From Trichodesmium erythraeum IMS101 (GTDB lineage: Bacteria > Cyanobacteriota > Cyanobacteriia > Cyanobacteriales > Microcoleaceae), in NCBI RefSeq assembly GCF_000014265.1, contig NC_008312.1, positions 6,180,001 through 6,212,000 on the forward strand: a stretch of 32,000 bases of DNA, given 5' to 3'. Shown piece by piece: positions 637 to 29,416 of the stretch. The translations under genes were made by a program, and so were the position numbers. A model generated the notes under the pieces. It was not told where the DNA came from and did not search any database. It worked only from the letters and a program-made list of their open reading frames with translations. How positions within the stretch are numbered: position 1 is the stretch's first letter; each line of letters begins with the position of its first letter.

Positions 637-3600
637 TTAAGTTAATACTGAGTTTTTTGTCTGAGATAGTAAGGCTTTTATCTGAGGATTTTCTAATAAT
701 TTGGCTGCATCTGCTATTAGTTTATCCCCCCAAAGTTCTTTTTTCAGGCGCTTCGAGGAACCCCAACTTTTATCTGATTTTAGGGCGGCTTCAGTTGTTG
801 CTAAACTTTCTGGAATTTTACCTTTTTTATAGAGGGCAACTCCTATTGCTAATTTAGGTTCTACGAGTTGGTTATTAATTTCAGTTGCGGCTTGCCAATT
901 TTCTATTGCTTGATCTATAAAACCCATTTCATATTTAACTAAACCAAGATTAATAATAGAATATTCATCGTCTGGTTTAATTTCTAAAGCTTTTTCATAA
1001 GCAGCAACAGCCTCTTCATATCTTTCTAATTTTATCAGAGCATTGCCTTTCAAAAACCAAGCTTCGTGAAAGTCAGGTTTAATTTCTAAAGCTTTTTCAT
1101 AAGCAGCAACAGCCTCTTCATATCTTTCTAATTTTATCAGAGCATTGCCTTTCAAAAACCAAGCTTCGTGAAAGTCAGGTTTAATTTCTAAAGCTTTTTC
1201 ATAAGCAGCAACAGCCTCTTCATATCTTTCTAATTTTATCAGAGCATTGCCTTTCAAAAACCAAGCTTCGTGAAAGTCAGGTTTAATTTCTAAAGCTTTT
1301 TCATAAGCAGCAACAGCCTCTTCATATCTTTCTAATTTTATCAGAGCATTGCCTTTATTGTGCCAAGCTTCGTGAAAGTCAGGTTTAATTTCTAAAGCTT
1401 TTTCAAAAGCAGCAACAGCTTCTTCATATCTTTCTAATTTTCCCAGAGCTATGCCTTTATTGTGCCAAGCTTCGTGAAAGTCAGGTTTAATTTCTAAAGC
1501 TTTTTCATAAGCAGCAACAGCCTCTTCATATCTTTCTAAATTTCCCAGAGCATTGCCTTTCAAAAACCAAGCTTCGTGAAAGTCTGGTTTAATTTCTAAA
1601 GCTTTTTCATAAGCAGCAACAGCCTCTTCATATCTTTCTAATTTTATCAGAGCATTGCCTTTCAAAAACCAAGCTTCGTGAAAGTCAGGTTTAATTTCTA
1701 AAGCTTTTTCATAAGCAGCAACAGCCTCTTCATATCTTTCTAATTTTATCAGAGCATTGCCTTTCAAAAACCAAGCTTCGTGAAAGTCAGGTTTAATTTC
1801 TAAAGCTTTTTCATAAGCAGCAACAGCCTCTTCATATCTTTCTAATTTTATCAGAGCATTGCCTTTCAAAAACCAAGCATCGTGAAAGTCAGGTTTAATT
1901 TCTAAAGCTTTTTCATAAGCAGCAACAGCCTCTTCATATCTTTCTAATTTTATCAGAGCATTGCCTTTATTGTGCCAAGCTTCGTGAAAGTCAGGTTTAA
2001 TTTCTAAAGCTTTTTCAAAAGCAGCAACAGCCTCTTCATATCTTTCTAATTTTTCCAGAGCTATGCCTTTATTGTTCCAAGCTTCGTGAAAGTCAGGTTT
2101 AATTTCTAAAGCTTTTTCAAAAGCAGCAACAGCTTCTTCATATCTTTCTAAATTTCCCAGAGCATTGCCTTTCAAAAACCAAGCATCGTGAAAGTCAGGT
2201 TTAATTTCTAAAGCTTTTTCAAAAGCAGCAACAGCTTCTTCATATCTTTCTAATTTTATCAGAGCTATACCTTTACCATTCCAAGCATAGTGATAGTCTG
2301 GTTTAATTTCTAAAGCTTTTTCATAAGCAGCAACAGCCTCTTCATATCTTTCTAAATTTTCCAGAGCATCTCCTTTATTGTGCCAAGCATAGTGATAGTC
2401 AGGTTTAATTTCTAAAGCTTTTTCATAAGCAGCAACAGCTTCTTCATATCTTTCTAAATTTTCCAGAGCTATGCCTTTATTGTGCCAAGCTTCGTGAAAG
2501 TCAGGTTTAATTTCTAAAGCTTTTTCATAAGCAGCAACAGCCTCTTCATATCTTTCTAAATTTTCCAGAGCTATGCCTTTATTGTGCCAAGCTTCGTGAA
2601 AGTCAGGTTTAATTTCTAAAGCTTTTTCATAAGCAGCAACAGCCTCTTCATATCTTTCTAATTTTCCCAGAGCTATGCCTTTTAAAAACCAAGCTTCGTG
2701 AAAGTCAGGTTTAATTTCTAAAGCTTTTTCATAAGCAGCAACAGCCTCTTCATATCTTTCTAATTTTCCCAGAGCTATGCCTTTTAAAAACCAAGCATAG
2801 TGAAAGTCAGGTTTAATTTCTAAAGCTTTTTCATAAGCAGCAACAGCCTCTTCATATCTTTCTAAATTTCCCAGAGCATTGCCTTTATTGTGCCAAGCTT
2901 CGTGAAAGTCAGGTTTAATTTCTAAAGCTTTTTCAAAAGCAGCAACAGCCTCTTCATATCTTTCTAATTTTTCCAGAGCTATGCCTTTATTGTTCCAAGC
3001 TTCGTGAAAGTCAGGTTTAATTTCTAAAGCTTTTTCATAAGCAGCAACAGCCTCTTCATATCTTTCTAAATTTTCCAGAGCTATGCCTTTATTGTGCCAA
3101 GCTTCGTGAAAGTCAGGTTTAATTTCTAAAGCTTTTTCATAAGCAGCAACAGCCTCTTCATATCTTTCTAAATTTCCCAGAGCATTGCCTTTCAAAAACC
3201 AAGCATCGTGAAAGTCAGGTTTAATTTCTAAAGCTTTTTCAAAAGCAGCAACAGCCTCTTCATATCTTTCTAATTTTTCCAGAGCTATGCCTTTATTGTT
3301 CCAAGCTTCGTGAAAGTCAGGTTTAATTTCTAAAGCTTTTTCAAAAGCAGCAACAGCTTCTTCATATCTTTCTAATTTTTCCAGAGCTATGCCTTTATTG
3401 TTCCAAGCTTCGTGAAAGTCAGGTTTAATTTCTAAAGCTTTTTCAAAAGCAGCAACAGCTTCTTCATATCTTTCTAATTTTTCCAGAGCTATGCCTTTAT
3501 TGTTCCAAGCTTCGTGAAAGTCAGGTTTAATTTCTAAAGCTTTTTCAAAAGCAGCAACAGCTTCTTCATATCTTTCTAATTTTTCCAGAGCTATGCCTTT

Positions 3601-5721
3601 ATTGTTCCAAGCTTCGTGAAAGTCAGGTTTAATTTCTAAAGCTTTTTCAAAAGCAGCAACAGCTTCTTCATATCTTTCTAAATTTCCCAGAGCATTGCCT
3701 TTTAAAAACCAAGCATAGTGAAAGTCAGGTTTAATTTCTAAAGCTTTTTCATAAGCAGCAACAGCCTCTTCATATCTTTCTAAATTTCCCAGAGCATTGC
3801 CTTTCAAAAACCAAGCATCGTGAAAGTCAGGTTTAATTTCTAAAGCTTTTTCATAAGCAGCAACAGCCTCTTCATATCTTTCTAAATTTCCCAGAGCATT
3901 GCCTTTCAAAAACCAAGCTTCGTGAAAGTCAGGTTTAATTTCTAAAGCTTTTTCATAAGCAGCAACAGCCTCTTCATATCTTTCTAAATTTCCCAGAGCA
4001 TTGCCTTTCAAAAACCAAGCTTCGTGAAAGTCAGGTTTAATTTCTAAAGCTTTTTCATAAGCAGCAACAGCCTCTTCATATCTTTCTAAATTTCCCAGAG
4101 CATTGCCTTTCAAAAACCAAGCATCGTGAAAGTCAGGTTTAATTTCTAAAGCTTTTTCATAAGCAGCAACAGCCTCTTCATATCTTTCTAAATTTCCCAG
4201 AGCATTGCCTTTCAAAAACCAAGCATCGTGAAAGTCAGGTTTAATTTCTAAAGCTTTTTCATAAGCAGCAACAGCCTCTTCATATCTTTCTAAATTTCCC
4301 AGAGCATTGCCTTTCAAAAACCAAGCTTCGTGAAAGTCAGGTTTAATTTCTAAAGCTTTTTCATAAGCAGCAACAGCCTCTTCATATCTTTCTAAATTTC
4401 CCAGAGCATTGCCTTTCAAAAACCAAGCTTCGTGAAAGTCAGGTTTAATTTCTAAAGCTTTTTCATAAGCAGCAACAGCCTCTTCATATCTTTCTAAATT
4501 TCCCAGAGCTATGCCTTTCAAAAACCAAGCTTCGTGAAAGTCAGGTTTAATTTCTAAAGCTTTTTCATAAGCAGCAACAGCCTCTTCATATCTTTCTAAA
4601 TTTCCCAGAGCATTGCCTTTCAAAAACCAAGCTTCGTGAAAGTCAGGTTTAATTTCTAAAGCTTTTTCATAAGCAGCAACAGCCTCTTCATATCTTTCTA
4701 AATTTATCAGAGCTATGCCTTTCAAAAACCAAGCTTCGTGAAAGTCAGGTTTAATTTCTAAAGCTTTTTCATAAGCAGCAACAGCCTCTTCATATCTTTC
4801 TAAATTTATCAGAGCTATGCCTTTCAAAAACCAAGCTTCGTGAAAGTCAGGTTTAATTTCTAAAGCTTTTTCATAAGCAGCAACAGCCTCTTCATATCTT
4901 TCTAAATTTATTAGTGCACTGCCTTTATTGTTCCAAGCATTGTAATCATTTGGTTCTATTTTTAAAGCTTCATCACAAGTTAATATTGCCTCTTCATTTT
5001 GCTGCAACTTTCTATCTAGAGAAGCCTTTCTAACTAACAAATCTGCTTTTTGTCCTACAGGAAGCAAATCTTCATCAAGTAAACTTTTAATGCTCACCAA
5101 TTCAACTTTACACTCTGGCTTAGTAAACTCTATATAATCCTCTAATTTCTTTTCACGGACTTCCAAATATCCCTTATCAAAACTTTCCTGATCCATAGGA
5201 AACCGAAACAGCCCAGAACGCCAATCAAAAAAATCTGGCGCACGTTTAATCAGATAATTTATAGCAAACCTTGGCAACAGAAATACAAAGCAAATATCAA
5301 AATCATCCCTAAATCTTTCTCGCTGCTGATTCAAATTAATCAAAACCGGAGGAACACCTCTTCTGCTAATAGAAATAATCTCATTATGATCCCAACCTCT
5401 TTCCTTCATTTCATCCTCATATTGATAGAAAGAATATTCCAAACCAGTCACAAACAAAATATCAATTTCTTTCAGATTTGGTAATTCTTTGACTCGATTA
5501 TAAAAATGATAAATAGTCTTATCTAAACCCAAAACATCTGCTCTTTGCTCCGGAATATCCAGGCGAATTTTCTCCATAATTTCTGTTCCCTTTGCTCGAG
5601 AACATTCCGCAAACAATAAACTAAAACCCTCATTAAATCTAATAGTCTCTACTAAAGCTTCATATTCCTCTGTAAATGTTAACGAAAAATCCTCTTGCCA
5701 AATAATTCTTTCTCCCTTCAT
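637..5721 (-). CDS. Giant TPR-repeat protein (1694 aa): ~260-aa N-terminal non-TPR region, one divergent TPR, 39 near-identical 34-aa TPRs, ~110-aa C-terminal TPR-like cap
   Basis: Single uninterrupted ORF. The repeat AWFLKGNALGNLERYEEAVAAYEKALEIKPDFHE fits the TPR consensus (W4, G8, A20, Y/F24, A27, P32). AGGAG lies ~10 nt upstream of the ATG. The start overlaps the stop of the upstream ATPase ORF (ATGA at 5718-5721). Confidence 0.9.
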   Translation of the reverse strand: MKGERIIWQEDFSLTFTEEYEALVETIRFNEGFSLLFAECSRAKGTEIMEKIRLDIPEQRADVLGLDKTIYHFYNRVKELPNLKEIDILFVTGLEYSFYQYEDEMKERGWDHNEIISISRRGVPPVLINLNQQRERFRDDFDICFVFLLPRFAINYLIKRAPDFFDWRSGLFRFPMDQESFDKGYLEVREKKLEDYIEFTKPECKVELVSIKSLLDEDLLPVGQKADLLVRKASLDRKLQQNEEAILTCDEALKIEPNDYNAWNNKGSALINLERYEEAVAAYEKALEIKPDFHEAWFLKGIALINLERYEEAVAAYEKALEIKPDFHEAWFLKGIALINLERYEEAVAAYEKALEIKPDFHEAWFLKGNALGNLERYEEAVAAYEKALEIKPDFHEAWFLKGIALGNLERYEEAVAAYEKALEIKPDFHEAWFLKGNALGNLERYEEAVAAYEKALEIKPDFHEAWFLKGNALGNLERYEEAVAAYEKALEIKPDFHDAWFLKGNALGNLERYEEAVAAYEKALEIKPDFHDAWFLKGNALGNLERYEEAVAAYEKALEIKPDFHEAWFLKGNALGNLERYEEAVAAYEKALEIKPDFHEAWFLKGNALGNLERYEEAVAAYEKALEIKPDFHDAWFLKGNALGNLERYEEAVAAYEKALEIKPDFHYAWFLKGNALGNLERYEEAVAAFEKALEIKPDFHEAWNNKGIALEKLERYEEAVAAFEKALEIKPDFHEAWNNKGIALEKLERYEEAVAAFEKALEIKPDFHEAWNNKGIALEKLERYEEAVAAFEKALEIKPDFHEAWNNKGIALEKLERYEEAVAAFEKALEIKPDFHDAWFLKGNALGNLERYEEAVAAYEKALEIKPDFHEAWHNKGIALENLERYEEAVAAYEKALEIKPDFHEAWNNKGIALEKLERYEEAVAAFEKALEIKPDFHEAWHNKGNALGNLERYEEAVAAYEKALEIKPDFHYAWFLKGIALGKLERYEEAVAAYEKALEIKPDFHEAWFLKGIALGKLERYEEAVAAYEKALEIKPDFHEAWHNKGIALENLERYEEAVAAYEKALEIKPDFHEAWHNKGIALENLERYEEAVAAYEKALEIKPDYHYAWHNKGDALENLERYEEAVAAYEKALEIKPDYHYAWNGKGIALIKLERYEEAVAAFEKALEIKPDFHDAWFLKGNALGNLERYEEAVAAFEKALEIKPDFHEAWNNKGIALEKLERYEEAVAAFEKALEIKPDFHEAWHNKGNALIKLERYEEAVAAYEKALEIKPDFHDAWFLKGNALIKLERYEEAVAAYEKALEIKPDFHEAWFLKGNALIKLERYEEAVAAYEKALEIKPDFHEAWFLKGNALIKLERYEEAVAAYEKALEIKPDFHEAWFLKGNALGNLERYEEAVAAYEKALEIKPDFHEAWHNKGIALGKLERYEEAVAAFEKALEIKPDFHEAWHNKGNALIKLERYEEAVAAYEKALEIKPDFHEAWFLKGNALIKLERYEEAVAAYEKALEIKPDFHEAWFLKGNALIKLERYEEAVAAYEKALEIKPDFHEAWFLKGNALIKLERYEEAVAAYEKALEIKPDDEYSIINLGLVKYEMGFIDQAIENWQAATEINNQLVEPKLAIGVALYKKGKIPESLATTEAALKSDKSWGSSKRLKKELWGDKLIADAAKLLENPQIKALLSQTKNSVLT
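961..4938. repeat. Tandem array of 39 x 102-bp units (coding, inside the TPR gene)
   Basis: A 102-nt period is directly visible (e.g. ...gtgaaagtcaggtttaatttctaaagctttttcataagcagcaacagcctcttcatatctttctaa...). By eye about four-fifths of each unit is invariant across all copies. Runs of fully identical units and duplicated 4-unit blocks are present. Confidence 0.95.
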
Positions 5722-7043
5722 TTCACCAACTCCTGAAACTTTTGTAATCCTCTAATCAATGGATGAACATCATACCAAACTTGCTTTTCTCCCTTCTTAT
5801 CATAGTAAACATATTCTAGTAAACAACGATTAAATAATAAATCCCGATACTGTTGATTATTCAACACATTTTTATTACGAAAAACATTTGCCAATACTTG
5901 CCATTCTTCTTCCTGAACCGACCTTTGATAAGACACTCTTGCTTCTGTAATTGCTCTTTGTACAACCCCAGCAGATATAGGTAATTTACCTCTAGCACGC
6001 TTAATTACACTTTGCATTAAAAACATTAAATCCCGAACATGACCTCCACTCGTTAAACAAACTTTATCCAACACTTCTCCACTTTCAAACAAGTCTTTTT
6101 CTAAAGATAAATCCGACTTAACTTCCTTCACCCGCCTATCAATAATTTCCCTAACTTTAGCAACTCCTGATTCATAAACTTCCCCTTCCCGAGTCTCCAC
6201 CATAATCATCGGTAAAACTTGAGGTTCATCATATTCAACCTTCAGATTAGGAGCCTTATTAGAATAGACCATTGAAATAGGAATTGTATAAATTATATGG
6301 CAATCTAATCCCTTTAATTGGGCACTACGATCTAAAAAAATTTCATCGTGATTACTACGTCCGTCCGGCCGATCAATTGGAACAATGCGGTCTAAATTAT
6401 CCGCAATTATTACCAGTTTTGAACCAGAACCAAGCTGATTTTTAGCATCACAAATAAAAGCATTTACAGCATCAATTAAACTTTCAGTATAAGGATTCAC
6501 TCTATCTCGAATTTTTTTTCTTAGAGTAGGTTCAGCCCTAATATTTGCCGTAAGTTTTGCATACTGACTAATTTGTGATTCAACCTCCAAGTTTTCCAAA
6601 GATATTTTCGTAGTTGCTAAGTCTTTTAAATCTTCCCACCGTCCCTTTAACCAATCTAATAGTGGTTGAGGATTAGCCTTTTTTAACTTTTCTAATAAAT
6701 GTCTCGTACAAGCCAACAAAATATCAACATATTCCGTATCTTCTGGATTAATATCATTTTCATCTGCAGCAAAATAAACTACACAATATCTCTGATTTTC
6801 CAGGTATTTTTGCAGTCGTAAAAGTTCAGTTGACTTACCCCCACCTCGATGTCCGGCATAAAGTTGACAAGTATTATCATCAGAATATTCAATATTCTCA
6901 GCTAAATCTTTAATAACATCTCCATCTCCCCTAACTTCGCTACAGTCAACATATACTCGACTATCAGCTTGTAGAGGTTCAGAAGGTTTAAAAGAATTAT
7001 ATAATTTTTTCAATAAATGTCTCTGATCTGTCTGATTTTCCAT
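5718..7043 (-). CDS. P-loop NTPase (AAA+/STAND-like ATPase), 441 aa, translationally coupled to the TPR protein
   Basis: Walker A is GHRGGGKST and Walker B-like is KLVIIADNLD, followed by a helical C-terminal half. AAGGAG lies ~11 nt upstream of the ATG. The stop overlaps the start of the downstream ORF. Family assignment beyond P-loop NTPase is not resolvable by eye. Confidence 0.85.
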   Translation of the reverse strand: MENQTDQRHLLKKLYNSFKPSEPLQADSRVYVDCSEVRGDGDVIKDLAENIEYSDDNTCQLYAGHRGGGKSTELLRLQKYLENQRYCVVYFAADENDINPEDTEYVDILLACTRHLLEKLKKANPQPLLDWLKGRWEDLKDLATTKISLENLEVESQISQYAKLTANIRAEPTLRKKIRDRVNPYTESLIDAVNAFICDAKNQLGSGSKLVIIADNLDRIVPIDRPDGRSNHDEIFLDRSAQLKGLDCHIIYTIPISMVYSNKAPNLKVEYDEPQVLPMIMVETREGEVYESGVAKVREIIDRRVKEVKSDLSLEKDLFESGEVLDKVCLTSGGHVRDLMFLMQSVIKRARGKLPISAGVVQRAITEARVSYQRSVQEEEWQVLANVFRNKNVLNNQQYRDLLFNRCLLEYVYYDKKGEKQVWYDVHPLIRGLQKFQELVK

Positions 7044-7364: not shown

Positions 7365-7895
7365 TTAACTCTCTAGATTATCAATCTGATAATCTAATAA
7401 CTTTGCCACAGTTTCAGGAAATATTTTAACATCTATATTTTCATCTTCCCGTTGAGACAAAGAACGTTTAACTTCCCCCAAATAAAGAGGCTCAGAAACA
7501 CCCTCTTCTGGATGAATAATAGTTCTAACTCTAATAGTTAATTGACGATCCATACCCAAACGGCCCGGTGAAAATAAATCTCCTGCTGCCTGCTCCATAG
7601 TTGCTACTAACTCTGACTCTTTAATAGTAGGAGCAACAGCAATTACTGTTTGAGTTGCACCATTATCATAAACTAACGTATATCTAACTGCTCCTGGAAC
7701 TTCTACCCGGTTGAATAGTCCTAAACTTAAACCAAATAAACCAGCAGTTAGGACTCCCATAAAACCTGTTACTCCCACTAATCTAAATCTAAACTCCCTA
7801 TTAAAAATAAAGGCAATAATTGTCAAAATAAAAAATCCAATTGTAGCAATACCAAACCATTGAGAAGCTATGAGTAACTCTGTAGTTGATAACAT
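7365..7895 (-). CDS. Small conserved cyanobacterial membrane protein, possibly Ycf51/DUF2518-like
   Basis: 176-aa ORF with two clear N-terminal hydrophobic helices (WFGIATIGFFILTIIAFIF, VGVTGFMGVLTAGLFGLSLGLF) followed by a soluble domain. The family call is from memory of Ycf51 architecture only. Confidence 0.6.
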   Translation of the reverse strand: MLSTTELLIASQWFGIATIGFFILTIIAFIFNREFRFRLVGVTGFMGVLTAGLFGLSLGLFNRVEVPGAVRYTLVYDNGATQTVIAVAPTIKESELVATMEQAAGDLFSPGRLGMDRQLTIRVRTIIHPEEGVSEPLYLGEVKRSLSQREDENIDVKIFPETVAKLLDYQIDNLES

Positions 7896-17117: not shown

Positions 17118-17544
17118 GAATCAGTTGCATAAACTCAAAAATATTGTCAAACTGACATCATTAGACTTGTCGCTTTATAACTTAAAAAATCACCAAAAAC
17201 TAAGTTCAGTAAAGATTGTAGCTATTGGGAAATAAAAAAATTGAAATTATTGCTCTGTCTAGGTTGGAGCGATTTTTTCCCTCTATTTAGCGACAACTCT
17301 ATTGTAGATATCCTTTTGTAACCATTTCTATACCTAAATAGGTAGAAAAAATTATTTGTGTATTTAAAGATTGTATATGTATATAAATCCAGAATAGATA
17401 AGCCAGAAGATTATCCTTATGGTTATGGAGAATTGAAAAAATAGTACCACTATTAAAAGTTAGGAAAAAGAACTGAGATAGTAAGTTTTTGTGCAACTAT
17501 AAATCAATTAAAAATGTTGGCCTATTTAACATTTACACCGAAGT

Positions 17545-17823
17545 TGTAATAGTGATTTGTTTGATAACTGGTTAGAAAATTTTTGACTACCAAAATTATA
17601 ATCGGGACAAGTGATCGTACTGGATAATGCAACATTTCATAAATCAGTTTATATTCAATAATTAGTGGCCAAAGCTAAGTGTGAAATCTGGTGTTTACCA
17701 CCATTATGGCTAGATTTTAATCAGATAGAACGTTGGTGGTTTGTTTGAAAAAATTTGCTCAGACAAAGACTCAAGGAATTTGATGATTTTCGTATTGGGT
17801 GTGGATACAGCTTTTCTTGAACT
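17545..17823 (+). mobile_element. IS630-family transposase C-terminal remnant (stops in frame)
   Basis: It translates to ...DLFDNWLENF*LPKL*SGQVIVLDNATFHKSVYIQ*LVAKAKCEIWCLPPLWLDFNQIERWWFV*KNLLRQ. This matches the IS630 DDE region (DNAxFHK ... LPPYSPDLNPIE..W). Confidence 0.75.
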
Positions 17824-18110
17824 ACCTCAATTTTTTCTGTAGTGGCGAAAGATGTCCATTATTTCTTTGACAGGCTTGGTTGCATGAAGGTGGGGATCGC
17901 GCTCACATAATACTGTTATTTTTTAGTTGTCTGTGAAATCAAAGTCCAACCCGGGAGTCCATAATACCAATTCCCATAACTAGGGTTTGCTGAATAAATC
18001 TAAAAAACTTACACAATAATGATTTTAAGTATTTTTAATCATAAATAGTATCTAAGTTTCAGTTAAAATAGACTAAAAATTAGGTATCTATAATCCACAC
18101 TCCATATAAA

Positions 18111-18316
18111 GAAAAGTAGGCCAACGTGATACTCTAACAGAAAATTTTCAACCGGCGTTCAATGGCCAATTATCCCCAGAGTGATGACTAGTTTAATTCC
18201 TTGGGAAAAATATGAAGATGTATATGCAATCTTTTTCTCCACCATGCATAGGAGCACCTGGATTAAATTTTAGAATAGAATTAGGGGCGTTCATTATTAA
18301 ATAAAAATTAGGTATA
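18111..18316 (+). mobile_element. N-terminal fragment of an IS4/IS5-superfamily transposase (DUF772-like), degraded
   Basis: It translates to GQRDTLTENFQPAFNGQLSPE**LV*FLGKNMKMYMQSFSPPCIGAPGLNFRIELGAFIIK*KLGI. The pattern LIPWEK...GxPG..R..LGA.IIKxKLG is typical of InsH-type N-termini. The family call is tentative. Confidence 0.5.
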
Positions 18317-18469
18317 TTTGAAGACAAACAAATAAAATAGGATTGCTATATATTTAATGATTTTTTTTATATTAAACTCTTTTTGATCATCAAACTTTCA
18401 AATTTTAAATTTAACTTTTTTATTTATTTTTATTTCAATCTCTTTCTTCTGAACAGCCACATAAATATA

Positions 18470-19170
18470 AGCAGTTTTAAAAAATTATCATTCTTCAAAA
18501 ATGTATAAACTTCCAAAGTATATTGTTTGTCATCAGGCAATAAATTAACTGCCTTAATAGCATCCTTAAATTCTACATCCAAATGTTTACATCGTGGATA
18601 AATTTTACCAACATAATGGTGGTTATTCTTGATTAGTAAAGTTCCTAAAAAAATATGACTAGACCTACATATTTTTATGTTTTTTACTTTTTTACCAGAA
18701 TTACTGAAACACCAGCCAAAAATATCTAAGTACTAATATTGCTGAAACTCAGCATTAATAACAGGAGCATCAAAACAAATAGGATAGCAATCTTGATTAC
18801 TTAATTTAATATCTTGAATTAAGAATGATAAAAAGAAAAATCAGGTTGTTGACTGTGTAAAATCTCAAAAATTGGTCTATCTAATAATCTCTTACTTGCA
18901 AACCAATAGTAATAGTAATAGAAACCATTAATACCATGCTTTACTTTCTTTCTAATTTTGCTTGGGCACCCCTCACTTCTAACAAGCACAAATCGTAAAA
19001 TCCTAAATCAGTAGGTAGTTTCGGTTGATAATGTCCTTCAAACAGTGGTTTTGCTTTGGTAACATTTGTCGACTCTGTAAACACTTTACCCCACCATTCA
19101 TCATTTTCTGGAATTGGATGAAACTAAGGAAGAAAAAAGGCAATTAAACGTACTTGAGCCTCGGTTTTTA
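18470..19170 (-). pseudogene. WbsX-family (GH99-like) glycosyltransferase pseudogene, truncated with multiple stops
   Basis: The reverse strand reads [57 protein letters not shown]... This matches the hallmark [27 protein letters not shown]-terminus. The frame then collapses. Confidence 0.75.
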
Positions 19171-19304
19171 AACTATCTATCTACTTGATTATACTTTAAG
19201 TTTTTGGAATTGATGTAAACGGGTAATTTCAGGATTCAATAAACATCTCCAAAATAGAAAATAAGGTAAAATTATCAAAACCATTTATGTATAAAGTCTC
19301 CCAA

Positions 19305-20200
19305 ATGAATCCAACTTTAGAATATATTTATAATCATCCAAAATAAACAAAAAGAATTATTGGCATTACTTATGAACAGCTAATAAAATTAATAGCAAAG
19401 GCCTAAGTAATAGAATCAGAGAAAAAGGAGGCGATCGCCAAAACAGAAAAAAGATTAATTAAAGCAGGTGGAGTCAGAAAAAAGAATTTAACAAAGGAAG
19501 AAGAAATAATTTTAACGTTATTTTATTTACATCAAATACCAACTTTTCAAACATTAGGAATTAACTTTGGTATAAGTGAATCAAGTGCTAATAATATTTT
19601 TCATTACTGGATAGATATTCTCAGAGAATTACTGCCAGCAAGTTTATTAGAACAAGTAAAAAAAAAGAAAATGAATTGGAATGGGTAAAGGAGATATTAA
19701 CAGAATTAGAATTAATTGTAGATAGTACAGAACAAAGTAGAGAAAGACCAAGTGAATATAAAGACCAAGAAAAATATAAAATATGAAAAAATAAAAATCA
19801 TACTTTTAAAAATCAAATAATAACGACACCAAAAGGAACAGAAATAGTAGATGTAATAGTAGGAGAAAAAGGTCCAGTAAGTGATGTAAAAATATTAAGA
19901 AAACAACAGGATAAATTTGATAAAAAACAAAAGTTTCAAGGAGATAAAGCTGATGAAGGAGTAGAAAGAACTACTACACCAAAAAAGAAACCAAGAAAAA
20001 AAGAAATGCCGCTAGAAATCAAAGAATAAAATCAAGAAAAAGCCAGAAAGAGAATATTTGTAGAACATATAATAAGATTAATTAAAATATTTAGAATTGC
20101 TAGAGAAAGATTCAGATTAAAAGATAATAATTATCAAAAAGTAATCTTAACAATATGTGGTTTAGTGCGACTAAGAATTGGCTCTTTTATATTAGTAAAA
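19305..20200 (+). mobile_element. IS5-family / Harbinger-like (DDE_Tnp_4) transposase pseudogene
   Basis: HTH region: LTKEEEIILTLFYLHQIPTFQTLGINFGISESSANNIFHYWIDILRELLP. This is followed by IVDSTEQS..RP, HTFKNQII, TTPKKKP and a C-terminal RIFVEHIIRLIKIFRIARERFRL..ICGLVRLR. There are many stops and frameshifts. Confidence 0.75.
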
Positions 20201-20296
20201 ACCATCAAAAGCCGAGATAAAAATAATAAATCAAAGTACAATAAATATTTGAATTAGTAACACGAAGTATCTCTGATGCCCATAAAACTGTACAAA

Positions 20297-20775
20297 TTAA
20301 CTATCTTCATAAGTAGCGATCGCACCACTAAAGATAGTTAGGATAAATGTTTGAGTATTTTTGGAGATGTCTAATTCTATCCCCTTTTTTAGGGGAGCAA
20401 TAGCCTCCTCAAACTTAACCATCTCCCTCAAAGTCAGCCCCAAATTAAAATGCCTCCAGGCAAAATCTGAATTCAAAGTAATCATTTGCAGATATACAGC
20501 TAACGCATCTTCCCAGTGCTGCTGCTGGAATAAAAATCCCCTAGCTTTTGCTACAATTGCTATGTATACTTGATCTTGTTATTGTTAACATCCCAGAAAT
20601 CAGATTTTAGCGAGCTAACTTTCTTGAAACACTCATAAGCCTCTTCAAATTGCTCCAAATTAACCAAAACTAAATCTAAGTTATGATGAACCTAAATCTC
20701 ATCTGGCTTCAACTTCAAGGTTTGACGATAGGCTTGTGAAGGGTCTTCCCACTTCCGTTTTTGCTCAGAGTTCAT
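20297..20775 (-). pseudogene. Degraded TPR-protein gene fragment
   Basis: The reverse strand reads MNSEQKRKWEDPSQAYRQTLKLKPDEI*VHHNLDLVLVNLEQFEEAYECFKKVSSLKSDFWDV..., then the 62-aa ORF ..FAWRHFNLGLTLREMVKFEEAIAPLKKGIELD. The spacing is TPR-like, with stops and frameshifts. Confidence 0.5.
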
Positions 20776-21540
20776 TGTTGAAGTAAAACTAAATTAGCAG
20801 TGACGTACAATTAGTGATTTTTGCAGTTATAGTCCTAAAAGTAAAAAGAATTTAATCATTTTACAGTATGTCTCAATTAGTAGAGAAGGCTATAAATATT
20901 TTTGTGACTATTATTTGAGTTGTAAAAATTGATATTACAGGAATCTCTAAACAGCCAGAAAAAGATGATACACAGCCAAACGGCATCATAAGGTTGCTCA
21001 AGAGTTCAAGCCTTGTATTTTCTTCTGTATTAGATTACTTGTTTGACAAGCCGAGGATTTGATGATAAAAGCTTCATATATGACAGGCATTTAGTAGAGT
21101 TATTGGTAAATAAAAATTGAAAAGACTCAAAAGCTTACTATTAATGGTTTTGAGTATTTTAGTACTGAAAAACACTATAAGCTTTGACTTAATTTTGGTT
21201 TTATATTATGTCCGTTAATATCGTTTGTGTAAAAGTTTGGACAATATCTATCGTCATATAAGGTTGTTCTTCCTTTTAAAGCTTCTTCCTTCTTTCTTAC
21301 CTTCTCTATACAATACCGATGCTACCGGACATAATATTAGCCTTTTTTTTTAAAATAGCTAAAACCTAAAACAAGTCCAGGTTTATAGTGCTTTTGAGTA
21401 TTAAAATCCTGAAAGCATTATAGAGTAAACTTTTGAGCATTTTAAATCTTTATTTCCAAACAACTCTGATGTATTTTTAGTGATTATTTCAGAGATTTAC
21501 ACTATAACTAGTGCCTTTACGTAAGTCATGTTCCAGTTTA

Positions 21541-21656
21541 AATTACTCCCACAGAATTAAAATGGCCATCATAAGCTAGGGATTATCTGGGGATAGTCGG
21601 TTCTTAAGTGACCATTTAAAATTTTCTGGCGTCGGCCTAGATTAGCCTACTTTTTT
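21541..21656 (-). mobile_element. Second, inverted copy of the same IS 5'-end fragment as 18111-18316
   Basis: The reverse complement shares AAAAGTAGGC, CAGAAAATTTT, TATCCCCAGA and TTTAATTC..TGGGA with 18111-18230, in the same order and interrupted by indels. Confidence 0.5.
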
Positions 21657-21950
21657 CTACTTAATTACTGCAAATAGATGCCTGAAAATTGCTGTATTTT
21701 AGCTTCAAAGAGGTAAATATTTCTTTTTCTAAAGATGCTTAAATACTTACTGTGCAAGTTTTTAGATTGAATCAGTAGGCTTTATATAGAAACCATTTGA
21801 TATCTCTATTGATTAATCATTAGCTTTACAGCTTCTTGGTTTAATCCTTATTGGCACAAATACCCTCCACTAGTCCATTACCTAGGTCGAAATTACTTAT
21901 ATGGCTTGGTGAAGTAGCTAATTTAGCTTGAAAAAGATACCAAATGAATT

Positions 21951-28450: not shown

Positions 28451-29416
28451 TTAAATTTTAGCTGTATTTTTATTATTAATGGCCGCAGATTCTGTTACGT
28501 TTCTGAGAGTTCCTAGGTAAGTTCTGTAAGAAGTGCCACCTGTACCATAAACAGTATTATTATTTTCACCTGGATTAGATATGTATTTAGGAATCATTTT
28601 TAAATGATTAGTTCGCATCAAAAGAATTTTGTCAATACAGTTATTGTAAGCTTCTCTTAAATCTGGAGAATTATTGTCCATGACAAAGTTTCTTACTAGG
28701 CTCTTATGATAAGTTTCTTCCAAAAAATTTCTATGAGGAGCTGGCATATAGTTAACAAAACCGTAGTAATTTTCTAGAACTAACTCTACAGGAAGTTCTT
28801 GTTTTTCGTTAAGAATTTTTCTTTGTACAGGATCTAGAGACATACAACCCATAATCCTATCTAATAAAGGCATTGCAATGCTTTTAGAACCAGTTTCTCC
28901 TCTGAGAACTGAAGCATTAATCTCGGTACCTTGATAAACAAGCTCAAGGTTATTGTGCCATCCCTTGAGAAACTGTCTGATGTATTTTCTGAAAATTTCA
29001 GGAGACACAATCTTCTCTGTAGTCATAAAAACATCTTTTATGTTAACAATCGTATTAGCCATTTCTCGTAAGACAATAGTTAGAGAAACTGCATCTTTTT
29101 CCTCCGCTAGCTCATCGCTTTTATCCCTTGCCGATAACACTCCCTAGCAGCTGCTTCATAGGCTACATGAACAGTTATGAATTGGTCTTCATCTTCTAAA
29201 ATGAAAATGTAACCAGACTTTTAAGATTGTTTGTGGTAAAATCTCCAGTTGGATCTTGTTTTCTCCAGTTTCTTAAGACATAATCAGCATAGTTGAGTAT
29301 TGGTGGTTCTTTCAATCTTTCTGAAACCTAAACCAAAGGAATAGCAATCTGTGATGGAAGAACTGTTCTTGGTTCAGGTTCCCCTAAAGTATCGTCAAAA
29401 GTTGAATAAAAAGTCA
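28451..29416 (-). pseudogene. Indoleamine 2,3-dioxygenase (IDO)-like gene, 5'-truncated and frame-disrupted
   Basis: The C-terminal 229-aa ORF matches IDO (YMPAPHRNFL, LREAYNNCIDKILLMRTNHLKMIPKYI, GTGGTSY). The upstream pieces (LPSQIAIPLV*VSERLKEPPILNYADYVLRNW... and LEDEDQFITVHVAYEAAA) lie in other frames with a TAG. About 100 N-terminal residues are absent. Confidence 0.7.

Follow-up and report, generated by a model that had tools for sequence, protein, structure and literature searches.

A translationally coupled gene pair for an Orc1/Cdc6-like AAA+ ATPase and a 39-unit tetratricopeptide repeat protein in Trichodesmium erythraeum IMS101: a possible two-protein switch with kinship to NLR-like conflict systems

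Introduction

Nucleotide-binding proteins associated with long repeat arrays are known from the STAND/NLR-like NTPases (AP-ATPase, NACHT, nSTAND1 and Avs). Here we report on a stretch of 32,000 nucleotides from Trichodesmium erythraeum IMS101 (contig NC_008312.1, positions 6,180,001 to 6,212,000 of the forward strand; hereafter the window) in which two overlapping minus-strand genes encode an AAA+ ATPase (gene 1) and a giant tetratricopeptide repeat (TPR) protein (gene 2), annotated just as "ATP-binding protein" and "tetratricopeptide repeat protein". The pair resembles the STAND/NLR-like NTPases in that an NTPase with a helical lid and a winged helix is joined to a long TPR array, in the high identity of its repeats and the variability of their ligand-facing positions, and in having relatives that are linked to CHAT, TRADD-N, nSTAND1, WD40 and MoxR. 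It differs from them in being split over two polypeptides without an effector domain, in an ATPase that is nearer to Orc1/Cdc6, BrxC and ATPase_2 than to NACHT or NB-ARC, in its chromosomal, syntenic and slowly evolving character, and in that the ATPase is an additional component in the remote pairs described below.

Other described systems share particular aspects of this arrangement. In the MoxR-vWA ternary systems (Kaur et al. 2020, PMC7159879), as in our pair and its relatives, an AAA+ protein goes together with a constant adaptor onto which variable modules (TPR, HEAT or beta-propellers) are fused. Those systems are likewise enriched in multicellular bacteria, and a 28%-identical homologue of our ATPase lies directly after a MoxR gene on a Nostoc plasmid; unlike them, the window contains no MoxR, vWA, VMAP or iSTAND gene, and the N-terminal domain of gene 2 (N-dom) has no match in Pfam or NCBIfam. 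The proteins whose structures best match the model of the ATPase, Orc1/Cdc6, BrxC and TnsC, are nucleotide-controlled matchmakers bound to partner proteins, yet no BREX, Tn7 or replication genes lie near the pair. The fungal NLR repeat arrays (HET-E/D type WD40, TPR and ANK) show unit identities of 80-90%, variation on the binding surface and variability of repeat number between relatives, all of which recur here, except that this array is bacterial and resides on a polypeptide separate from the NTPase. High internal repeat identity together with variable binding positions has been described as a common trait of both fungal and bacterial NLR repeats (bioRxiv 10.1101/2020.01.06.895854).

A final comparison comes from Anabaena sp. 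PCC 7120, in which the TPR protein All4981 (about 650 aa) assembles into filaments and is probably an essential protein; its gene is co-transcribed with all4982 and all4983 via ATGA overlaps, and All4981 interacts with All4982 (Springstein et al. 2020, PMC7002697). There too a TPR gene is ATGA-coupled to an upstream gene in a filamentous cyanobacterium, although All4981 has only some 650 aa and belongs to a three-gene operon.

Results and Discussion

Two overlapping genes very probably encode one functional unit

The layout of the gene pair is as follows.

5718..7043, minus strand: gene 1, a 441-aa AAA+ ATPase with a nucleotide-binding domain, a helical lid and a C-terminal winged helix (open reading frame (ORF) list, AlphaFold2 model)
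637..5721, minus strand: gene 2, a 1694-aa protein with N-dom, a helical linker, the TPR array and a C-terminal cap (ORF list)
5718..5721, minus strand: ATGA stop/start overlap of gene 1 and gene 2 (direct sequence read)
5730..5734, minus strand: AGGAG, a Shine-Dalgarno-like motif for gene 2, inside gene 1 and 8 nt before the gene 2 ATG (sequence read)

The ATG of gene 2 occupies 5721-5719 and the TGA of gene 1 occupies 5720-5718, so that the junction reads cAGGAGttggtgaaATGAaggg. The overlap and the AGGAG within the end of gene 1 had been noted in an earlier reading of the same DNA, made by a model from the letters and an ORF list (the original prediction), and both direct reading and the ORF coordinates confirm them. 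A scan for promoters and terminators gave counts no better than those in shuffled sequence, and Rfam had no match in the window.

To place the pair among other genomes we scanned one genome per species for relatives of the ATPase, which yielded at least 555 loci (species genomes); counts of pairing are taken from the best 80 of these. All 80 are cyanobacterial, with ATPase identities of 56-83%, and nearly all come from filamentous forms (Okeania, Dapis, Microcoleus, Moorena, Nostoc, Calothrix, Rivularia, Stigonema, Pseudanabaena, Symploca and Tychonema), together with one metagenome-assembled genome labelled Aphanothece. The two genes are indeed conserved as neighbours: a gene encoding N-dom lies downstream of the ATPase on the same strand at 68 of the 80 species loci, and at most of the others the contig breaks off directly behind the ATPase. 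In 32 of the 68 orthologous pairs the overlap amounts to exactly 4 nt, and the same 4-nt overlap is found in a 34%-identical paralogous pair on the Acaryochloris plasmid pREB2. Because it recurs both among orthologues and in so distant a paralogue, we do not regard the overlap as a product of chance; gene 2 is translationally coupled to gene 1 through it. Conserved adjacency and overlap, together with a natural fusion of the two proteins (P0260, a metagenomic protein of 1179 aa with ATPase, N-dom and TPRs in a single chain), support the earlier proposal that the products act together, and we hold with high confidence that the ATPase and the TPR protein constitute one functional unit.

Several variations on this layout were seen. 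In Okeania sp. KiyG1 about 1.3 kb separate the ATPase from its partner (L004, 9318-10611), and several other loci have gaps of 0.2-2.4 kb. In Crinalium epipsammum PCC 9333 (L001, 11821-11824) the coupled string is longer, since the gene for the TPR partner in turn shares 4 nt at its stop with the start of an HflX-type GTPase gene. The Nostocales apparently possess two paralogous ATPase/N-dom pairs, one in which the ATPase ends in ...AKLS and the partner starts with MNPNLSDWDDDLP, and one in which the ATPase ends in ...NRLYPA and the partner starts with MALELTDWDRDLP; both ATPase types are present in Calothrix membranacea FACHB-236 (L065, P0501).

The ATPase is an Orc1/Cdc6-like AAA+ protein that borders on STAND

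Gene 1 carries the following motifs and domain, for which invariance refers to an alignment of 38 homologues.

6828..6854, minus strand: Walker A GHRGGGKST, aa 64-72 (translation); G64, H65, R66, G67, G69, K70, S71 and T72 invariant
6390..6416, minus strand: Walker B LVIIADNLD, aa 210-218; I213, A214, D215, L217 and D218 invariant; strand 210-215 in the model
6033..6047, minus strand: GGHVR, aa 333-337, a proposed sensor-2 Arg at the start of the lid helix; G333, G334, H335, V336 and R337 invariant
5721..5972, minus strand: C-terminal winged-helix-like domain, aa ~358-441 (AlphaFold2 model; the full-length alignment to Orc1/Cdc6 spans the region)

Both Walker motifs by which the 441-aa product had originally been recognized as an NTPase are thus present, with their core residues invariant. 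An AlphaFold2 model built from the 38 homologues (pLDDT 78, pTM 0.76) comprises a nucleotide-binding domain, a helical lid at about residues 290-350 that includes the lid helix 336-349, and a C-terminal bundle of helices (358-404) followed by a beta-hairpin (408-414/420-426). T253, which is also invariant, ends the strand 249-253 and, by inspection, lies at the expected site of sensor 1. By our own inspection, too, R337 of the GGHVR motif appears to resemble the sensor 2 of Orc1/Cdc6, which has the motif GDAR.

When the model was compared with the PDB using Foldseek, the top match was an archaeal Orc1/Cdc6 (2qby_A, E 2.8e-5), followed by yeast Cdc6, BrxC of the BREX system (ranks 6, 9 and 15), TnsC of Tn7 and RuvB; a plant NLR first appeared at rank 28. 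Identities to the Orc1/Cdc6, BrxC and TnsC structures are 9-14%, with TM-scores of 0.13-0.25 that are low because the domain orientations differ. The likeness to BrxC is one of fold only, as PADLOC found no BREX components and none lie among the neighbours. At the level of sequence profiles, Pfam gave sub-threshold matches to AAA_16 (22.9 bits against a cut-off of 32.6) and ATPase_2 (15.4 bits against a cut-off of 33.2), while two remote members of the ATPase family exceed the ATPase_2 threshold in the homologous region (P0340 at 42.1 bits and P0296 at 35.1 bits) and nSTAND5 matches remote members below threshold. ATPase_2 is an archaeal-type family that has been grouped with the "MNS" clade of STAND (PMC8195603).

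We compared the protein with the features expected of a STAND NTPase. A P-loop core with Walker A and Walker B is present, and in the model helical and winged-helix domains follow the core, an arrangement that is also a trait of non-STAND AAA+ proteins such as Cdc6. STAND-type motifs consist of a sensor-1 Arg and a GxP in the helical domain, with no AAA+ sensor-2 Arg; on inspection the ATPase has instead a Thr for sensor 1 and, in place of GxP, the GGHVR with its sensor-2-like Arg. Nor are NTPase and repeats united in one polypeptide, since they occupy separate ORFs here and at the 68 orthologous loci and are fused only in P0260. We conclude that the ATPase is an Orc1/Cdc6-like AAA+ protein bordering on STAND and not a typical nucleotide-binding oligomerization domain (NOD) of the NACHT or NB-ARC kind.

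This conclusion runs against the proposal that the pair is a STAND protein split in two, in view of the resemblance to Orc1/Cdc6, BrxC and TnsC and of three remote pairs whose partner proteins hold a complete nSTAND1 of their own. Because several remote partners carry their own STAND NTPase, we regard the ATPase as an accessory AAA+ protein rather than the sensor's detached NOD. The original statement that no named defence system fits the pair does hold, as Pfam, NCBIfam and PADLOC return matches at the level of the P-loop only. For the ATPase these are PDC-S20 in PADLOC (25.9 bits) and DS41_1 in NCBIfam (20 bits against a cut-off of 370), both confined to the P-loop region, and PADLOC has nothing for N-dom. 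Known defence systems were therefore rejected as an identity for the pair, the PADLOC and NCBIfam matches to PDC-S20, DS41_1 and mad8 all being at P-loop level.

The TPR protein begins with a constant domain that may serve as an adaptor

The region of gene 2 that precedes the array is divided as follows.

5197..5685, minus strand: N-dom, aa ~13-175, five-stranded alpha/beta, no P-loop (AlphaFold2 model); proposed docking module for the ATPase
4945..5196, minus strand: helical linker and one degenerate TPR, aa 176-259 (model helices 178-255; Pfam TPR_2 at aa 226-259)

The original prediction had put a non-TPR region of about 260 aa at the N-terminus. Such a region exists, but it is about 225 aa long, with the alpha/beta domain reaching to about residue 175 and the helical linker following it. 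In the model of N-dom (pLDDT 85) the five strands are 34-39, 61-65, 88-92, 144-149 and 169-173, after which helices merge into the TPRs. Its invariant motifs include LNQQRERFRD and APDFFDWRS; the conserved stretches NLNQQRERFRD and APDFFDWRS would be candidate sites of contact with the ATPase. Residues 1-233 of gene 2 retrieve 342 proteins, many of them partial because their contigs end in repeats, and all of those that are named are cyanobacterial "tetratricopeptide repeat proteins".

N-dom has no match in Pfam, NCBIfam or PADLOC, and a profile search against the PDB gave noise only (E >0.5). We considered whether it might be a copy of the ATPase, or of a STAND NTPase, that has degenerated, and rejected this, as its hhalign probability against the ATPase family is 0.2% and it co-occurs with an intact nSTAND1 in the same proteins. 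The names EACC1, VMAP-C and iSTAND are excluded for N-dom and for the ATPase by the published descriptions, which define EACC1 as a transmembrane domain, VMAP-C as a 7-strand alpha+beta domain and iSTAND as an inactive NTPase (PMC7159879, PMC8195603).

Remote relatives of the pair belong to NLR-like conflict systems

In a library of representative proteins clustered at 50% identity, 2996 clusters are related to the ATPase at E <=0.001 and 378 at 1e-30. Among remote paralogues, whose ATPases are 28-35% identical to gene 1, the partner gene is in some cases more elaborate than in Trichodesmium, and N-dom is its recurrent element. One locus (L087) encodes a 35%-identical ATPase and a partner in which N-dom (hhalign 97%, E 1.6e-11) is followed by TPR, nSTAND1, HEAT and AsnC-type ligand-binding domains. 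Another (L088) has three tandem ATPase paralogues and then a giant nSTAND1 protein that opens with N-dom (hhalign 89%). On the Acaryochloris marina plasmid pREB2 (L092) the ATPase overlaps, by the 4 nt mentioned above, the gene for an 1830-aa protein with N-dom (hhalign 94%), TPR, nSTAND1 and WD40, flanked by HicAB, RelE/ParE, integrase and NACHT genes. The ATPases that adjoin these three partners are 33-35% identical to gene 1. N-dom also stands at the N-terminus of the partner in a further remote pair (L089, hhalign 100%).

The proteins encoded downstream of the ATPase differ in their C-terminal modules but have N-dom in common, which makes it the best candidate for a docking domain, and on these sequence comparisons its most likely role would be that of an adaptor for an accessory AAA+ protein.

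Other members of the ATPase family are fused or adjacent to components of conflict systems. P0378 is a fusion of CHAT, TRADD-like-N and the ATPase, on a contig that also holds ArdA and a UvrD helicase. The MoxR gene on the Nostoc plasmid precedes the gene for a SAV_2336_NTERM protein that ends in a complete homologue of the ATPase, which takes up the last 420 residues and keeps its motifs intact (AGHRGGGKTTEL, LLIIVDGLDR and CHIIYTIPIS); HEAT and formylglycine-generating-enzyme (FGE) genes lie nearby. We thus concur with the earlier suggestion of a kinship to NLR-like conflict systems, given the CHAT and TRADD-N fusions, the nSTAND1-WD40 and nSTAND1-HEAT partners and the MoxR neighbours, and place the wider ATPase family among the NTP-dependent conflict systems that multicellular bacteria possess (PMC7159879, PMC8195603). 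As originally stated, no effector domain is recognizable by Pfam, NCBIfam or PADLOC in either protein of the Trichodesmium pair. The chromosomal pair looks like a reduced, NLR-related module that lacks an effector.

A 32%-identical ATPase paralogue on plasmid4 of Calothrix sp. NIES-4101 (L096, 8351-14496) is followed by genes for a 697-aa protein and a 1300-aa WD40 protein. The former has a weak TIR-related match (NCBIfam Retron_TIR_antiphage, E 4e-5, far below the cut-off), and the locus may be a three-gene variant that includes an effector.

Thirty-nine near-identical TPR units vary at ligand-facing positions

The remainder of gene 2 consists of the array and its cap.

967..4944, minus strand: 39 tandem 34-aa TPR units with a 102-bp period (Tandem Repeats Finder, unit parsing, codon analysis)
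637..966, minus strand: C-terminal divergent TPR-like cap, aa 1586-1694, and the stop codon (translation; Pfam TPR matches in a C-terminal fragment)

Tandem Repeats Finder reports a period of 102, 38.6 copies and 95% matches over 970-4909. When the protein is parsed, 39 units follow one another in perfect 34-aa register (aa 260-1585), preceded by the degenerate TPR and followed by some two to three TPR-like capping units, close to the "41 or so" TPRs originally counted; the cap region is conserved in the Okeania orthologue. The complete orthologous partners have 219-1122 aa (median 586), and the Trichodesmium protein is the longest among the orthologues examined. Variation in array length is visible between species only, and the figure of 39 units rests on one assembly. 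The contigs of two close relatives from short-read metagenomes (98% and 88% identical; L090, 11323-12131, and L091, 11314-12087) both break off some 260 codons after the start of gene 2, exactly at the first of the near-identical TPR units. Assemblies systematically lack arrays of this kind or truncate them.

The mean pairwise identity of the 39 units is 0.89, which falls within the range of about 80-90% that characterizes internally conserved arrays of the NLR type; in most orthologous arrays it is 0.58-0.76. There are 18 unit types at the protein level and 22 at the DNA level. Amino-acid variation is confined to TPR positions 1, 2, 5, 6, 9, 12, 13, 24 and 34, and the rest of the 102-bp unit is nearly invariant. 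The alternative codons at positions 5, 6, 9 and 12 are two or three nucleotides apart (TTT/AAC/CAC, TTG/AAT/GGT, AAT/ATA and GGA/ATA/GAA, respectively), and plain counts give 3.9 non-synonymous against 0.77 synonymous codon differences per pair of units. From work on consensus TPRs, helix-A positions 2, 5, 9, 12 and 13 are known to line the concave, ligand-binding face of TPR domains. All five are among the nine variable positions, for which a hypergeometric estimate of the chance probability (nine of 34 positions covering all five) is p ~5e-4. Across 15 orthologous arrays, entropy peaks at positions 2, 5, 6, 9, 12, 13 and 34. The term "hypervariable" that had been applied to this protein is therefore apt for these few positions and not for the array at large, in which few positions vary and units are otherwise 89% identical. 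As a natural run of near-consensus TPRs whose binding face draws on a small "alphabet" of variants, the array would also be useful for repeat-protein engineering.

The variable codons at TPR positions 2, 5, 6, 9 and 13 (967-4944, minus strand) are often AAT or AAC, or the single-step derivatives GAT, TAT, AGT, CAC and GGT. Diversification by a diversity-generating retroelement was considered because AAY-rich codons superficially resemble the outcome of its adenine mutagenesis, and rejected: the third-base changes (TTT, TTG, ATA) are unlike adenine mutagenesis, and the window contains no reverse transcriptase ORF.

Could so long an array serve as a structural polymer? Extrapolating from crystal structures of consensus TPRs, 42 TPRs would make a rod tens of nanometres long, and one might imagine a cytoskeleton-like or scaffolding role in which the giant superhelix self-assembles or bridges structures of the trichome and the AAA+ protein acts as an assembly or disassembly factor, in the manner of All4981 and All4982. 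The similar ATGA-coupled Anabaena operon, in which All4981 binds All4982 (PMC7002697), would be a precedent. Such a role would also suit the core-like conservation and synteny of the pair, the occurrence of named relatives in filamentous genera only (among the best 80 loci and the named matches), and the lack of an effector in the pair by Pfam, NCBIfam and PADLOC. Orthology with the Anabaena proteins, however, is not supported. Their termini as derived from primers (MNSELFQKLAKAQ... for All4981 and ...LKSEQL* for All4982), which were the only parts compared, match no locus and in particular no Nostocales orthologue, and the N-dom motifs are absent from the sequence supplement of PMC7002697. 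PCC 7120 itself was not among the best 120 matches of our homologue search. Moreover, ligand-facing variation and repeat numbers that range from a few units to 39 suit a binding surface better than a structural polymer, and relatives of the pair occur in NLR-like conflict contexts. We think such a cytoskeletal scaffold improbable on balance, while giving it some weight; the broader fallback of the original prediction, a role in signalling or as an assembly scaffold, may still apply.

The pair is a vertically inherited, core-type locus

Directly upstream of the ATPase lies a gene of a cyanobacterial and plastid type.

7365-7895, minus strand: DUF2518 gene (full-length match, E 1e-62)

The neighbours of the pair are cysS, perM, a response-regulator cyclase gene and the DUF2518 gene, and elsewhere in the window lie genes for an M48 peptidase, an RNA-recognition-motif (RRM) protein, phytoene synthase (crtB) and desaturase (pds), DnaK, DnaJ and a glutathione S-transferase (GST). 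In Microcoleus vaginatus, too, the genes run response regulator, response-regulator cyclase, DUF2518, ATPase, partner, and Okeania and two Trichodesmium-like metagenome contigs have the same gene order with, in addition, cysS and a perM-like gene upstream. Adjacency of DUF2518 and the ATPase is kept in Okeania, Microcoleus and the Trichodesmium-like contigs and not in the Nostocales; in other lineages radical SAM, DUF4335 or unrelated genes lie upstream of the ATPase.

The divergence of the ATPase is similar to that of cysS and DUF2518. It is 78% identical to its Okeania orthologue and 62% to that of Microcoleus, compared with 74% and 54% for N-dom, 81% and 61% for DUF2518, 79% and 76% for the response-regulator cyclase, and 82% for cysS (Okeania only); across cyanobacterial orders the ATPases are 56-60% identical. 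The pair is a vertically inherited locus of the core type and not part of a defence island.

These results bear directly on the suggestion that the pair is an anti-phage or abortive-infection system of the Avs/AVAST type, in which the TPRs would recognize a cyanophage protein, the ATPase would oligomerize, and an effector that is unrecognized or encoded in trans would kill the cell. The logic of an NTPase with TPRs, the highly internally conserved repeats with their variable binding positions, the weak matches to PDC-S20 and DS41_1, albeit limited to the P-loop region, and the plasmid paralogues that adjoin toxin-antitoxin, NACHT, CHAT and MoxR genes are all in keeping with it. Yet gene 2 bears no N-terminal effector domain of the kind found on Avs sensors, and neither a match to a defence-system profile nor a defence-island context was found: PADLOC gave no family above noise for the pair and nothing specific in ten relatives, and the surrounding genes, from cysS, perM, the cyclase and DUF2518 to crtB, pds and dnaK/J, are not defence genes. 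Conserved synteny, a housekeeping-like evolutionary rate and an identity between orders far above that typical of defence genes likewise count against this idea. The defence reading is thus weakened, and we consider an Avs-type function unlikely.

The same neighbourhood invites a quite different suggestion, namely that the TPR protein is a co-chaperone or assembly factor for a housekeeping complex of the photosynthetic apparatus or the envelope, like Ycf3, Ycf37 and Pitt, with the ATPase supplying energy for remodelling. The housekeeping surroundings with DUF2518 directly upstream in Trichodesmium, Okeania and Microcoleus, the core-like rate of evolution, and the presence of dnaK and dnaJ within the window would be expected of such a factor. 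But the linkage to DUF2518 is lineage-specific, and named relatives all come from filamentous genera, a distribution unlike the universal one of core photosynthetic assembly factors. The number of repeats and the residues of the binding face are, furthermore, highly variable, and relatives are embedded in NLR-like systems. We therefore find an assembly factor very hard to credit.

Phormidium, Rivularia, Nostoc and the Aphanothece-labelled assembly have a radical SAM gene (~330 aa) immediately upstream of that for the ATPase, and in Crinalium one lies two genes away, at the following positions.

L054 8963-9964, L038 2960-3946, L067 8730-9710, L026 8686-9729 and L001 4135-5145: radical SAM genes near the ATPase

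Elsewhere in the window, 17118-21950 comprises about 4.8 kb with no ORF of at least 120 aa on either strand and no Rfam family above threshold, and may be a long non-coding or decayed region. At 28451-29140 (minus strand) lies an ORF of 229 aa that starts with GTG and aligns to no more than the C-terminal half of the Pfam profile for indoleamine 2,3-dioxygenase (181-365 of 412); it may be a truncated gene, or its start may be mis-set.

A model for the pair and its biological meaning

The original interpretation can be retained in several respects (one functional unit, NLR-like kinship, the lack of an effector, the variability of the TPRs), and set aside in its split STAND and in its Avs or defence-island setting. 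In its place we propose that the locus encodes a nucleotide-dependent, two-protein switch or sensor, a model that as a whole we judge to stand about evenly between being right and wrong. Gene 2 would be translated in step with gene 1 by means of the ATGA overlap, and the ATPase would dock on N-dom in a stoichiometry of roughly 1:1. The 39 or more TPRs would form a long superhelix, varying only in concave, ligand-facing residues; with 42 repeats at about eight per turn it would make about five turns and measure tens of nanometres. This solenoid may bind one or more protein or peptide ligands, and ATP binding or hydrolysis by the AAA+ protein on N-dom could turn ligand occupancy into oligomerization or remodelling of the complex. 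Thresholding logic of this sort has been proposed for the MoxR-vWA systems, and Orc1/Cdc6, BrxC and TnsC employ it together with their partner proteins. The chromosomal pair would then be a fixed, reduced form of a wider two-gene family whose mobile relatives add nSTAND1 and WD40 or HEAT sensors. Because the chromosomal clade is without a STAND module and an effector, its output would probably be the recruitment of other proteins or signalling through them, and not direct killing.

Several observations weigh against this proposal. Immune sensors do not usually evolve slowly, nor are they usually inherited in a strictly vertical manner. Neither the pair nor its conserved neighbours encode an effector, a DNA-binding output or a second messenger enzyme, as judged from Pfam, NCBIfam, PADLOC and scans of the neighbours. 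The contact between N-dom and the ATPase is suggested by genomics alone, and Foldseek matches to the N-dom model, which included three TPRs, were dominated by the TPR part. TPRs in general are least conserved at positions 2, 5, 9, 12 and 13, so that the pattern of variation is partly generic, and the extreme identity of the units in Trichodesmium may result from recent unequal crossing-over. Finally, restriction to filamentous cyanobacteria is a statement about the best 80 loci and the named matches.

Taken singly, the components of the locus are familiar: an AAA+/STAND-like NTPase and TPR repeats of high internal conservation. We have not found a description of their arrangement here, with an accessory Orc1/Cdc6-like ATPase and an unnamed adaptor, in an effector-less, TPR-only chromosomal form and with the largest array seen; our search of the literature, which included PMC7159879 and PMC8195603, returned no account of the pair.

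A broader reading, which we offer tentatively and think less probable than not, is that filamentous cyanobacteria universally retain a domesticated NLR-like surveillance module, in which an AAA+ protein gates a hypervariable TPR solenoid through N-dom and which operates at the level of the trichome, the ATPase/N-dom couple being a general "second switch" placed before nSTAND1-type NLRs. It would, for example, recognize kin or self, contain infected cells or control programmed cell death, a process of ecological importance in the blooms of Trichodesmium.

The family is large and unannotated, the ATPase alone having relatives in at least 555 cyanobacterial species genomes and in some 3000 clusters at 50% identity. 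Should the chromosomal clade prove to be linked to the filamentous way of life, the pair would be a tractable candidate for the study of cell-cell surveillance or trichome biology; Nostoc and Anabaena-like strains have orthologues. Should the ATPase and N-dom together regulate bacterial NLR-like proteins in general, they would represent a layer of control over STAND immunity that current classifications have missed.

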